Positions 49,287 through 62,527 of a stretch of 64,000 nucleotides of DNA are shown here, piece after piece. The position numbers and the translations under genes were made by a program. Every line of letters starts with the position of its first letter. Position 1 is the stretch's first letter. Source of the DNA: Escherichia phage WPEC1; the sequence record PV659873.1. One strand, 5' to 3'. Below the pieces are notes generated by a model. It was not told where the DNA came from. It made no database searches and saw only the letters and a program-made list of their open reading frames with translations.

Positions 49287-49655
49287 ATGACAAATAATAT
49301 TCCGTTGAGCAGTGCAACATTGCTTCGCTTCTATAAAGCATGGATTGCCAACTATCCTGCAATGAATCGCACAACGAGTGGCTTATGTGGTTGTCTGGTA
49401 GATTATGTAGATGATTTTGTTGGTGAGACAACTAGAGAAGAAGATAGAAGATGGCGGGATAGTTTGTTAGACCGTTTGAAATATGAAATGAGGAAACAAT
49501 TTACATGTGCAGGGCTGGACTACAATCTTCCGTTCAATGCAGATTGCATGGATTACCTTTCAGAGTGTATAAACTTGGCGTGTCATACCAACACGTTACG
49601 TCTTCAATGGGTGAAAGACAGAATTGAAGATGCAAATAATGCTTGCATTGAATAA
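49287..49655 (+). CDS. paralog family A member
   Basis: 122 aa; family signature LxxFYxxW...GLCxCL...RLQWVKDRI; first 23 codons also occur as module copies at 9650 (forward) and inverted at 9877, 13176, 23380, 23456. Confidence 0.5.
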   Translation: MTNNIPLSSATLLRFYKAWIANYPAMNRTTSGLCGCLVDYVDDFVGETTREEDRRWRDSLLDRLKYEMRKQFTCAGLDYNLPFNADCMDYLSECINLACHTNTLRLQWVKDRIEDANNACIE

Positions 49656-49704
49656 AAATGTCTGTATAATGGATGACATAACAGATAGCCAATGAGGAGA
49701 TGAA

Positions 49705-49926
49705 ATGAAGAATTTGAAAACTGTCACAATGTTCTTGACTGATCCTACACGTGTGCAAGCACTGGCTAAAGCCAGCCGTGTAGCTGTAGAATTCCAAAAC
49801 TTTAAGCCGTCCGTTGTGACAGGCAGTGAAACGTGTGTTATCGATTTCATTAACGAATACTTCCGAGGGAATCCGGTTGGTCGTTACTTCATTAAAAACT
49901 TGAAGGATGCGGAGCAGGTACAATGA
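49705..49926 (+). CDS. hypothetical protein
   Basis: 73 aa; GAGGAGA SD. Confidence 0.45.
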   Translation: MKNLKTVTMFLTDPTRVQALAKASRVAVEFQNFKPSVVTGSETCVIDFINEYFRGNPVGRYFIKNLKDAEQVQ

Positions 49927-50162
49927 TCCTTCCAGTAGATAATGAGATAGCTATGAATGTTCTGGATACAGAATACTTCTACAATCACTACTCTGAGACA
50001 GAGTGGATGAACACGCAAACTCTAAAAGAGAAGACGCAAGCTTTGATTAAGTGTGATCGCTACTTGCAACGTGCCGAGGAAGATAATATAACATTAGCAT
50101 CTCGCGCACGACGCATTTCTATTTTTAATAAAATGTTAGCATTATGGGGAGGTAGAAAATGA
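49923..50162 (+). CDS. hypothetical protein
   Basis: 79 aa; ATGA overlap. Confidence 0.45.
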   Translation: MILPVDNEIAMNVLDTEYFYNHYSETEWMNTQTLKEKTQALIKCDRYLQRAEEDNITLASRARRISIFNKMLALWGGRK

Positions 50163-50608
50163 GACAACTATCTATACTGGAAGCACATGTGCAATGTGTT
50201 GCAGATTATGTCAAAGAACATTCAAGTTTGTTGGATGTAACCTGTGCAGTGCAAGATGATGTAGGTATTGTCTGTGTGCAACATATTCTATCTGAAACTT
50301 GTTACGAAGTATTCCGTGCTACCTTGTTTGGATGTGATCGTGTACATGTAAACTTTCTGGACTCCAATTATCGTTATGCTTTAGAAGATATTGATGACTA
50401 TCTTCCTTGCTCTCCAACAGGATATGTGATGATAGCAGGAAATGAAGTAACACCAAACAACACTGAACGGAAAGTTTTGTTATGGAAGAAAGCACGGCAA
50501 CTGCAAGTGCTGAATGAAATGAAAGAGGAGTTGGAGCAGGAACTGCTCAACGACTTCGATAAATCTCCAGAAGAGGCTTTAGCGTGGTTGCGTGAAGTAG
50601 AACAATAA
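50159..50608 (+). CDS. hypothetical protein
   Basis: 149 aa; ATGA overlap. Confidence 0.5.
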   Translation: MRQLSILEAHVQCVADYVKEHSSLLDVTCAVQDDVGIVCVQHILSETCYEVFRATLFGCDRVHVNFLDSNYRYALEDIDDYLPCSPTGYVMIAGNEVTPNNTERKVLLWKKARQLQVLNEMKEELEQELLNDFDKSPEEALAWLREVEQ

Positions 50609-50630
50609 TTTAACATAAGAGGAGAAGATC

Positions 50631-51086
50631 ATGTTTAAAGTAGGGTTTACTTATAAATTCAAAAGCGTTGCTGACCAAGGAGATATGGCAACACATGACA
50701 AAGCAAATATTGCTGTTTGCCAAGCGATTGGAAACGAAGTTTTCAAAGTTATGAATACAGATGATAAGTATGGTCATGTTCTTGAGTTTTATATTAATGG
50801 TACCCTTTATACAGCAGGTGTTACCCCAGGGTTTAATTCATATACTTATTTGATTGATAACGAAGAATTTAAATATTTTGAAGAAGTAAAGGAGGAAACA
50901 ATGGGTAAAGCAGAACCACAATGGCATGTTGTGATCGTAGGATCAGAGTGTGTAGATGTTTGTTCTAGTTTTGAAAAAGCTTCTGAAGTCGCTACAAAAG
51001 CTAAGAAGGATTATCCGTCGAAGACGGTTGAGATTTACGCTCGTGTTGCAGTAGCAAACGCCACAATCACTATTGATAAGGAGTAA
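50631..51086 (+). CDS. paralog family B member 1
   Basis: 151 aa starting MFKVGFTYKF; similar to two downstream genes. Confidence 0.5.
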   Translation: MFKVGFTYKFKSVADQGDMATHDKANIAVCQAIGNEVFKVMNTDDKYGHVLEFYINGTLYTAGVTPGFNSYTYLIDNEEFKYFEEVKEETMGKAEPQWHVVIVGSECVDVCSSFEKASEVATKAKKDYPSKTVEIYARVAVANATITIDKE

Positions 51087-51091
51087 AGCCA

Positions 51092-51547
51092 ATGTTCAAA
51101 GAAGGTCATGTCTACCGTTTCCAGGATGAAGATTATATGCGATTATATTCTACCTTTGATAACAGTATTGCTGCTATCATTGGAGAGAATTTTTTCGAGG
51201 TGTTGAGCACTGATGCAAATGGTAATATCTTGTCAATTGTTGTGATAGGGAGAGACGGTGTTATCACTGCTAGTGATGGGGATCGTTACATAATCAATTC
51301 TGCTCATATAGATTATTTTGTTGACGGTGGTATTCGTGGTGGTCGTGGAAAACCCCAAGAAGAACCTGTTGATACAACAAAAGAAGAGTGGTATGTTGTA
51401 ATGACTGATGACACCTGTATTTCTGGATTTGAAAGTTATGAAGAAGCTTTGAAAGAAGCAGCAGAGCATAAAATGGCTAATCCTACAGAAGAGGTTGAAG
51501 TTTATAAACGTTTGGTTGTTGCTACCATCGGCGTATCTTTTGTTTAA
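51092..51547 (+). CDS. paralog family B member 2
   Basis: 151 aa starting MFKEGHVYRF; C-terminal W.VV...C....FE..EA...A...P...VE.Y shared with 50631 gene. Confidence 0.5.
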   Translation: MFKEGHVYRFQDEDYMRLYSTFDNSIAAIIGENFFEVLSTDANGNILSIVVIGRDGVITASDGDRYIINSAHIDYFVDGGIRGGRGKPQEEPVDTTKEEWYVVMTDDTCISGFESYEEALKEAAEHKMANPTEEVEVYKRLVVATIGVSFV

Positions 51548-60906: not shown

Positions 60907-61249
60907 GAGGATTCTTTTAGATTTCTATAATAATTGGTTAGAACACCTCCGTCTCTTTCCAAGAGAAAGTGGTTACGCTGATGTTGGCTTATGCCGAGGT
61001 CTGCGTATGTATATAAGTGATGAATTTCGGGCAGAGCATTCTCTAGCATATTCTGTTTATGGTATGCAATTAGCCAGTTTTGAAAACGCTGGCTTAGATA
61101 CAACTTTCCCATTTAACACAGCAAAATCTTTTGAGCAAGAGTGTAAGGAAAAACGTTGCATGTTTAATGAAAAACGTGTACAGTGGGTTAAGGATCGAGT
61201 TAAACAACTGGAACAAGAGTTGGATTTCTTCTATGATGAGGCAGAATAA
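60884..61249 (+). CDS. paralog family A member
   Basis: ATG 60884 after GAAGGAGAAAC: LLDFYNNWLE...GLCRGL...RVQWVKDRV. Confidence 0.5.
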   Translation: MTIDLKCKRILLDFYNNWLEHLRLFPRESGYADVGLCRGLRMYISDEFRAEHSLAYSVYGMQLASFENAGLDTTFPFNTAKSFEQECKEKRCMFNEKRVQWVKDRVKQLEQELDFFYDEAE

Positions 61250-61521
61250 TGGATAGACAAACCTTAAAAACAATGGCAGATGCCACTAATTCCCCGTACT
61301 TTGAAAAAGTAAGTAAATTGGTAGCTCAAGCCGCAGAGGAAGGATATTATAACATAAACATCCACAACCCAAGTCTTATACTAGAAATGCCAAGTGATAA
61401 GAAGATACAAGAAAGTATCTGCGAAGGTATTGTTAGTTACTGGCGCGAGCGTGGGTGTGGTGCAAACATGGCTTTAGACAGTGCAAACATTGTAAGATAT
61501 ATAAATATTTCTTGGGGGTGA
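61249..61521 (+). CDS. hypothetical protein
   Basis: 90 aa; TAATG overlap. Confidence 0.45.
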   Translation: MDRQTLKTMADATNSPYFEKVSKLVAQAAEEGYYNINIHNPSLILEMPSDKKIQESICEGIVSYWRERGCGANMALDSANIVRYINISWG

Positions 61522-61525
61522 TTTT

Positions 61526-62137
61526 ATGATTCAATGCACTCATATCCAAATTACTTGGAGAGATGAACTTTACCATTTGGGACAATTTACTGTAGGGGAA
61601 ACATACCCTATCATTAAACATAATCCTAACATCGCAAACTTTGACAGGATGGTTCTTGTTGAGGACGATCTAGGTCAAACTTATTCTTTAGATCTAAAAT
61701 ATCCGTTTTCTTACGGCTACGATTGGATCGTTACTTTTGAAGACGTGGAGGAAAATAAAACAATGAACGAAAAAAATTCTTGGTATTATCGTTGTGAACT
61801 GCCGCCAGTAGGTGAAAAGGTTATCTTTGTTCCTGATTTGGAAAGATATTCTTGGGACAGTTCTTATTCTGTTCCTAAAGAAGGCACCGAAGTTGAAGTT
61901 ATTGCACATCGCACAACTTCGCATGGTAACGATGTAGCAGTTGTTTTCTGGGATGATGAAGGCGCTGCTTGTGCAGGTGGCTTTGTTGCAGGTAATTTTG
62001 AACCCCTGCCAGATCCTTTGAAGGAGGCAATTTTAGGCGTAGCTTCTTTTGGACTCTCTTACACGTCTGCACAAGAGATCGTAGAAGGTATTTTAAACGG
62101 TACCGTTCCAAACGAAATTTTTAAACAGATTAAATAA
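61526..62137 (+). CDS. hypothetical protein
   Basis: 203 aa. Confidence 0.5.
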   Translation: MIQCTHIQITWRDELYHLGQFTVGETYPIIKHNPNIANFDRMVLVEDDLGQTYSLDLKYPFSYGYDWIVTFEDVEENKTMNEKNSWYYRCELPPVGEKVIFVPDLERYSWDSSYSVPKEGTEVEVIAHRTTSHGNDVAVVFWDDEGAACAGGFVAGNFEPLPDPLKEAILGVASFGLSYTSAQEIVEGILNGTVPNEIFKQIK

Positions 62138-62142
62138 CAGTT

Positions 62143-62170
62143 GCACCCCGTTCTTCGGGGTGTTATTGTA
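62143..62170 (+). terminator. rho-independent terminator
   Basis: gcaccccg-ttctt-cggggtg followed by TTATTGT. Confidence 0.5.
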
Positions 62171-62188
62171 TACGTAAAGGAGGAGATA

Positions 62189-62527
62189 ATGTATTACACT
62201 GAAGACTACATACTGTATAACTTTTTTAAAGGCTGGTTGAAATGGGCGGAACAAGCTCCTGTCGGAGATTGTGTTTTTCCTTGGGATTCTCGTCAAGGTT
62301 TGTGTCGTTGTTTGGAAGATTGGCTTATAACCACAAACTACAACTCAGAAACTAAGAAATCTACATCAAATCGATTAAAAATGTTGTTTGAAGAAGATGG
62401 TTTAGATCCAATTTATCCTTTCGGTGAGGAAAGTTTCCACAATGGTCTTTTCCTTGGCACTCAACATTATGATAAAGATCGTGTAGATTGGGTAAAAGAA
62501 AAGGTAGCACAGTATGAATGGGGTTAA
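62189..62527 (+). CDS. paralog family A member
   Basis: ATG 62189 after AAGGAGGAG: NFFKGWLKWAEQAP...GLCRCL...RVDWVKEKV. Confidence 0.5.
   Translation: MYYTEDYILYNFFKGWLKWAEQAPVGDCVFPWDSRQGLCRCLEDWLITTNYNSETKKSTSNRLKMLFEEDGLDPIYPFGEESFHNGLFLGTQHYDKDRVDWVKEKVAQYEWG

Follow-up and report, generated by a model that had tools for sequence, protein, structure and literature searches.

Six paralogous genes in the accessory arm of phage WPEC1

We analyzed a stretch of 64,000 nucleotides (nt) from the genome of Escherichia phage WPEC1 (record PV659873.1; here called the window), a member of Phapecoctavirus, the taxon of phAPEC8-like Escherichia coli myophages. The subject of the analysis is a set of six related genes, g1 to g6, that encode small proteins of ~105 to 120 amino acids (aa). 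All six open reading frames (ORFs) were confirmed on the plus strand at the starts given in an original prediction, which had been made from the letters of the DNA and had proposed that they form one paralogous family.

49287–49655, plus strand: g1, 122 aa, orthologue of phAPEC8 gp244
53961–54275, plus strand: g2, 104 aa, orthologue of phAPEC8 gp233
57182–57508, plus strand: g3, 108 aa, orthologue of phAPEC8 gp222
57947–58267, plus strand: g4, 106 aa, orthologue of phAPEC8 gp219
60884–61249, plus strand: g5, 121 aa, orthologue of phAPEC8 gp214
62189–62527, plus strand: g6, 112 aa, orthologue of phAPEC8 gp211

The genes sit in a long rightward-transcribed series of tightly packed small genes, and everything in this arm is annotated “hypothetical protein,” the sole exception being a serine recombinase gene at 59804 to 60475. 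Good Shine-Dalgarno sites are found for g2 to g6; alternative starts lie upstream of g5 at 60866 and 60851, and g6 has an alternative TTG start at 62141. The region from 49283 to 62600 is 100% identical in phages WPEC4, WPEC2, and WPEC6 and 95 to 98% identical in many Phapecoctavirus genomes, including Mt1B1_P17, anhysbys, and relatives of phAPEC8. GenBank already contains these very genes, labeled as hypothetical proteins, and the family is a genuine known unknown.

The six genes are one family, PHROG 2510/pVOG VOG7392, which is catalogued without a function. Their products align over the full length with 15 invariant columns (MAFFT alignment A1), among them F15, G-L-C, L37, F72, G-L, P-F, R105, and W-V. 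Pairwise BLASTP identities range from 22.8 to 52.4%, with E values of ≤2.4e-5 in 14 of the 15 pairs and of 0.016 for g1/g6; g3 and g4 are the closest paralogues (52% identity). When hidden Markov models (HMMs) were built from five members and searched against all six-frame fragments of the window, the left-out sixth was recovered each time, with E values from 6.6e-15 to 9.5e-31. All six proteins match the phrog_2510 profile (E values of 2.2e-25 to 4.9e-31) and, more weakly, phrog_6418, phrog_27059, and phrog_2176. The phrog_2510 matches cover positions ~5 to 113 of 219, and the length of this profile indicates, in some members, an additional copy or a further domain that has no counterpart in the window proteins. 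In the phage nieznany, the products nieznany_100, _91, and _88 (91 to 99% identity to g3, g5, and g6) were given the note VOG7392 by the depositors.

Alignment, BLASTP, leave-one-out HMMs, and the phrog_2510 matches thus all bear out a single six-member family, and the shared motifs proved significant in multiple alignment and HMM building. The predicted motifs are correct overall, except that the “GAP...PF” segment ascribed to all members is present in g2, g3, and g4 and partly in g6, and is not found in g1 or g5. A second strongly conserved block that had gone unlisted, E-M-x-x-Q-F-x-x-A-G-L-x4-P-F-N, is as conserved as the listed motifs.

Predicted fold and conserved residues

An AlphaFold2 model of g3, computed from an alignment of 18 sequences, is a compact five-helix bundle with a mean predicted local distance difference test (pLDDT) score of 94.3 and a predicted template modeling (pTM) score of 0.86; its helices span residues 5 to 19, 34 to 44, 48 to 64, 77 to 85, and 93 to 107. 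A structure search of BFVD returned uncharacterized phage proteins only. The window proteins appear to be soluble and are acidic (isoelectric points of 4.5 to 5.3), and no signal peptide or membrane segment was seen on inspection of the sequences, made without a predictor.

Conservation was assessed in 147 single-domain representatives, which share an overall identity of only ~30%. It is highest at L12, F15, Y16, G33-L34-C35, E58, Q62, F63, G67-L68, P73-F74-N75, Y81, H91, N93, R96, and W99-V100, with Cys35 retained in 100% of the representatives, R96 in 99%, Q62 in 94%, E58 in 90%, N93 in 88%, and H91 in 82%. The scaffold is laid out with F-Y in helix 1, G-L-C at the start of helix 2, the E-M...P-F-N block, and H-x-N-x-x-R-x-x-W-V in helix 5; insertions and sequence variation are concentrated in the loop between helices 2 and 3 and around helix 4.

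Most matches to the family are single-domain proteins of 95 to 135 aa, and several are natural two- or threefold tandem fusions, in which the cysteine is kept in both halves in 15 of 16 cases. The model of one tandem fusion, P0042 (pLDDT, 94.4; pTM, 0.81), has no PDB analogue and implies a fixed packing of the two predicted domains. Since natural fusions occur and the P0042 model packs its halves in a fixed manner, the single-domain members are probably dimeric.

Synteny, copy number, and selection

Seven syntenic copies are present in the type phage phAPEC8 (gp245, 244, 233, 222, 219, 214, and 211), the first corresponding to g0, a seventh paralogue described below. Within the group, the arm holds from 3 (nieznany) to 9 (phiWec181) copies; g0, g1, g2, and g4 are missing from nieznany, and g4 is missing from ESCO25. 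Orthologues in close relatives are 89 to 100% identical, and every copy has kept its syntenic place. The arm is mosaic throughout, and divergence in the family genes does not exceed that in the adjacent genes.

Ratios of nonsynonymous to synonymous substitution rates (dN/dS) against orthologues were 0 to 0.5 in 22 of 23 comparisons, the other giving 0.75 from 8 substitutions. They were about 0 to 0.13 for g2 and g6, 0.02 to 0.24 for g5, 0.12 to 0.49 for g1 and g3, and 0.24 to 0.75 for g4, where each comparison holds only 8 to 10 substitutions. The low dN/dS and the syntenic orthologues indicate that the paralogues are constrained; judged from these comparisons, they are ancient, individually specialized, and under purifying selection. 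The family had been described as rapidly diverging, and this is not supported: the 22 to 52% identity among paralogues reflects old copies, and faster evolution of the family genes than of their neighbors was tested by the divergence comparison and dN/dS and rejected.

One locus shows a different kind of change. Seven metagenomic g1 alleles (P0016, P0018, P0022, P0028, P0029, P0032, and P0033) share the identical C terminus QWVKDRIEDANNACIE, and their N-terminal three-quarters are only 50 to 70% identical. The combination of an identical C terminus with a divergent N-terminal part suggests intragenic recombination or recombinational allele swapping at the g1 locus.

A lost seventh paralogue and the 77-nt islands

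An HMM scan of the six-frame translation of the window found, in addition to the six genes, six copies of the C-terminal peptide HKKHICHKNKHRIQWVLDRIQDYEG and five N-terminal fragments. The latter are the first 71 to 73 nt of g1 at 100% DNA identity; the peptide is the end of g0, which in relatives immediately precedes g1, with an overlap of 11 nt (Mt1B1_P17 gp154, 114 aa; phAPEC8 gp245). Intact g0 is found in four of the five relatives for which the retrieved sequence covers its position (phAPEC8, Mt1B1_P17, ESCO25, and phiWec181), nieznany being the one without it. In the window assembly, an island of ~77-nt modules stands where g0 would be, and g1 is left without its native upstream sequence and ribosome-binding site, the place of which is taken by island sequence at 48747 to 49286. 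The islands and the family-derived pieces found in them are as follows.

9493–10284, 12947–13407, 22686–24687, 25520–27520, 29748–31678, 35045–35509, and 48747–49359: islands of ~77-nt and 2 × 77-nt modules copied from elsewhere in the genome
9564–9723, plus strand: copy of the g0-3′/g1-5′ junction, not a gene; equals phAPEC8 7266–7426
9874–10107, minus strand: g1 5′ module and two g0 3′ modules, island copies
13174–13326, minus strand: copy of the g0-3′/g1-5′ junction
23377–23608, minus strand: g1 5′ module twice and g0 3′ module once, island copies
26810–26890, minus strand: g0 3′ module, island copy

Collinearity with phAPEC8 begins at window position 49283, equivalent to phAPEC8 7352, and the family-derived modules correspond exactly to phAPEC8 7272 to 7352 and 7352 to 7428, that is, to ~77 nt on either side of this breakpoint. 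Repeat lengths in the islands peak at 75 to 78 nt and at 152 to 153 nt, and more than two matching places are found only in three WPEC records (WPEC2, WPEC4, and WPEC6). Because the modules flank the breakpoint and occur only in these assemblies, we consider it likely that the islands are an artefact of de Bruijn assembly at k = 77, or of scaffolding, in the deposited genomes, and not the outcome of module copying. Given such an artefact, the copying of family fragments would in all likelihood be incidental to a contig end at the g0/g1 junction.

Two earlier statements change accordingly. The “seventh C-terminus” that had been noted (13237 to 13330, the junction copy listed at 13174 to 13326 on the minus strand) is a real motif-bearing end, that of g0, and is present six times rather than once. 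Family fragments are indeed seen in the islands, where they had been ranked among the most-copied modules; biological copying is not borne out by their position at the breakpoint flanks and their restriction to the WPEC2/4/6 assemblies. These genomes appear to hold k-mer-sized artefacts that break genes such as g0, and the islands should not be read as biological repeats.

Twelve tRNA genes are predicted in the window, in groups at 8052 to 9484 and 24544 to 25015 that lie ~15 kb apart and each abut an island; a lone tRNA-Gln lies inside an island (30543 to 30610, minus strand). This split layout may reflect a block rearrangement in the window assembly. Directly upstream of g0, phAPEC8 (locus L012) has ~1.5 kb without annotated genes (5512 to 7022) that contains several inverted repeats. 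The gene-free stretch is conserved in every relative examined (same position in loci L013, L014, and L015) and is absent from the window; it could be a site of promoters or an origin for the arm.

Distribution and genomic position

Searched exhaustively with the family profile, 1.84 billion cluster representatives yielded 1,794 clusters (50% identity) at an E value of ≤1e-3, 722 of them at ≤1e-10. By tblastn against 50,697 phage genomes, matches were found at 623 places in 245 records, covering Stephanstirmvirinae, Autographiviridae (RSB1 and RHEph02/08), Schitoviridae (phiEaP8), N4-sized podophages of Erwinia, Achromobacter, and Klebsiella, the siphophages IME207 and Bas80, and a 368-kb Xanthomonas phage; BFVD adds JG068, BcepSaruman, phiW-14, and KPP10/PAK_P1-like Pseudomonas phages. 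Every homologue examined comes from a myophage, a T7-like, N4-like, or siphophage, or a phage-like contig, and the metagenomic contigs examined are phage-like arrays of small unannotated genes. Among 72,556 plasmid records a copy was found in one, which is non-mobilizable; the single match led us to reject a plasmid leading-region gene.

The position of the gene was examined in several phages. In phi92, five genes separate gp006 from the left direct terminal repeat, which is 2.3 kb away; RHEph08 gp06/07 are 1.8 to 2.9 kb from the left end of the record; ORF5 of the T7-like phage RSB1 is two genes upstream of a gp0.7-like kinase gene; and gp29 of the N4-like phage phiEaP8 is found among genes annotated as RNA polymerase subunits. 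These positions fit an early or accessory arm. A conserved-neighbor analysis of 11 loci found no neighbor gene common across the phage groups, and tandem arrays were common.

Searches for characterized relatives

For the six window proteins, Pfam-A gave no match at an E value of ≤0.01 and none reaching a gathering threshold (the best subthreshold scores were 13.7 bits for YaeQ, cutoff 25, and 16 bits for ARMC9_LisH, cutoff 27.3), and neither NCBIfam nor the PADLOC-DB models of antiphage defense gave a match; the sole PADLOC match was a weak one of CARF to the tandem fusion P0042 (E value of 0.0018). Searches of PDB sequences with two profiles returned nothing significant, and no sequence or fold similarity was found to solved structures such as Ocr, ArdA, Acb2, Tad1/2, AsiA, and Im7/Im9. 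The family had not been recognized in the original prediction, and the lack of a characterized relative is borne out across Pfam, NCBIfam, PADLOC, and the PDB. A word-indexed homologue search returned close relatives only, all “hypothetical.” We also considered a tyrosine-recombinase N-terminal core-binding (SAM-like) domain and a MarR-type DNA binder and rejected them, as the combination of a fold match with a basic DNA-binding surface was not found.

An anti-TIR protein, Atd1, has been reported for Phapecoctavirus (PMC11724313). No functional study of the present family was found in the literature on Phapecoctavirus, phAPEC8, WPEC, phrog_2510, VOG7392, and DUF551. Atd1 itself we take to be a MazG-like pyrophosphatase unrelated to the family.

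Comparison with known systems

The catalogue entries PHROG 2510 and VOG7392, the former with a profile that the six proteins match, give no function, fold, or mechanism. The family resembles T7 gp0.3 (Ocr) and other small acidic inhibitors of host defense that are encoded by early genes: its members are small, acidic, cytoplasmic, and likely dimeric, and in T7-like phages they are encoded in the early arm, as is RSB1 ORF5. Immunity proteins of colicins and polymorphic toxins (Im7/Im9 type) are likewise acidic helical bundles of ~100 aa with a conserved scaffold, a variable surface, and side-by-side paralogues; the present family has no detectable homology or structural match to them, has no adjacent toxin gene, and is seen in phages only. 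The analogy with Ocr and with colicin immunity proteins is functional only. A link to the lambda exo-xis region and Ea22-type proteins is given by member P0149, which is fused to DUF551 (E value of 2e-8), a domain treated in papers on the lambda early protein Ea22, and by the phi92 neighbors annotated as Eaa-like. However, DUF551 is absent from the window proteins, such a fusion is rare, and the domain itself is without a known mechanism.

The family is among the more widespread phage families without a Pfam entry, solved structure, or function; it is often present in several copies per genome and sits where phages keep genes for host takeover or counter-defense. Its confident fold and small size should make expression and crystallography easy, and because Phapecoctaviruses are used in phage-therapy work, the role of seven conserved, presumably early genes would be useful to know. 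New here are the size and spread of the family, its confidently predicted fold with no analogue in the PDB, the synteny of seven loci, the finding that every copy is under purifying selection, and the view that the “seventh C-terminus” and the fragments in the islands probably arose as an artefact.

Proposed function and alternatives

We tentatively prefer, at somewhat less than even confidence, to regard the family as acidic, early-made, dimer-forming binders of host proteins that serve host takeover or counter-defense. Functions of this kind had been suggested in the original prediction and would be a reasonable conjecture. The proteins would be expressed early, from the accessory arm with its densely packed genes, and, since the phage groups have no neighbor gene in common and tandem arrays occur often, would act alone, with no conserved partner gene. 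They would probably work as dimers, the variable face binding a host macromolecule and neutralizing or retargeting it, and each paralogue would have a different target. The family would then be an expandable toolkit of stoichiometric inhibitors for host takeover or counter-defense, comparable to Ocr or to proteins of the colicin-immunity type.

Several observations weigh against this proposal. No annotated homologue or structural analogue links the family to any target. Cys35 and the polar residues E58, Q62, N75, H91, N93, and R96 are highly conserved, a pattern no less expected of a conserved biochemical or ligand site than of a variable binding surface. The orthologues are not fast-evolving, which is unusual for arms-race proteins. 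Early expression is something we infer only from position, and scans for sigma-70 consensus promoters and for terminators were at background.

A broader version, possible yet distinctly doubtful, would be a new-fold family of early effectors in T7-like, N4-like, sipho-, and large myophages, which the large phages have expanded to 3 to 9 specialized paralogues, each disabling a different immune or housekeeping factor of the host, possibly by chemistry or ligand capture at the invariant helix-capping cysteine. The present evidence shows nothing mechanistically unexpected.

Of the alternatives, the one that fares best sees in the proteins either small enzymes that depend on a thiol or a metal or “sponges” that bind a ligand. 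Their conserved pole, formed by G-L-C at a helix N terminus, the P-F-N loop, and H-x-N-x-x-R, would then be an active or ligand site common to all members, and the role of the variable regions would be limited to adjusting substrate or partner. The invariance of Cys35 in the 147 representatives, the 82 to 99% retention of R96, Q62, E58, N93, and H91, and the cysteine kept in both fusion halves all speak for it, and purifying selection on every paralogue fits a conserved chemistry; even so, we consider it unlikely. Still less likely are regulators of the phage's own program, which would bind DNA, RNA polymerase, or phage proteins and time expression or replication, given the acidity of the proteins, the variable copy number, and the spread over phages with different transcription strategies. 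That the ORFs are functionless leftovers of duplication, or share motifs by chance, has nothing in its favor except that annotation is lacking, and is effectively refuted by leave-one-out E values down to 1e-31, by dN/dS values far under 1 at numerous synonymous changes, by the spread of the 1,794 clusters over phage groups that are unrelated, and by a fold predicted confidently from only 18 sequences.

Neighboring genes

One gene of the arm is a candidate companion of a single family member.

57508–57735, plus strand: phrog_25020 gene, 75 aa; its start overlaps the g3 stop

In the phrog_27059 profile, a family domain appears to be fused to a phrog_25020-like domain, and this gene may be a partner of g3, a weak lead. 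A general partnership was rejected, as the phrog_25020 domain occurs only in Phapecoctavirus-like records.

The gene at 59804 to 60475 is serine recombinase/resolvase-like, and its homologue at locus L011 carries the Pfam Resolvase domain. The counterpart in phAPEC8 is noted as a “putative site-specific recombinase,” and the counterparts in Mt1B1_P17 and several other relatives are annotated “methionine ABC transporter ATP-binding protein,” a label that looks like a propagated misannotation.

Further paralogues are found in the same arm. A second tandem set (50631 to 51086, 51092 to 51547, and 51560 to 51997) encodes proteins of ~150 aa that start with MFK(V/E)G; the first two are related at an E value of 1.5e-14, the third resembles them by eye at the N terminus only, and one copy is replaced or has diverged in phAPEC8 and ESCO25. 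A third paralogue relation joins 52025 to 52324 and the C-terminal half of 58322 to 58876 (phrog_15686/phrog_37387; E value of ~1e-9). The N-terminal ~68 aa of the latter gene product are a separate module (phrog_18786/24403), which in related phages is recombined with different C-terminal domains, as at L011:5603-6058.

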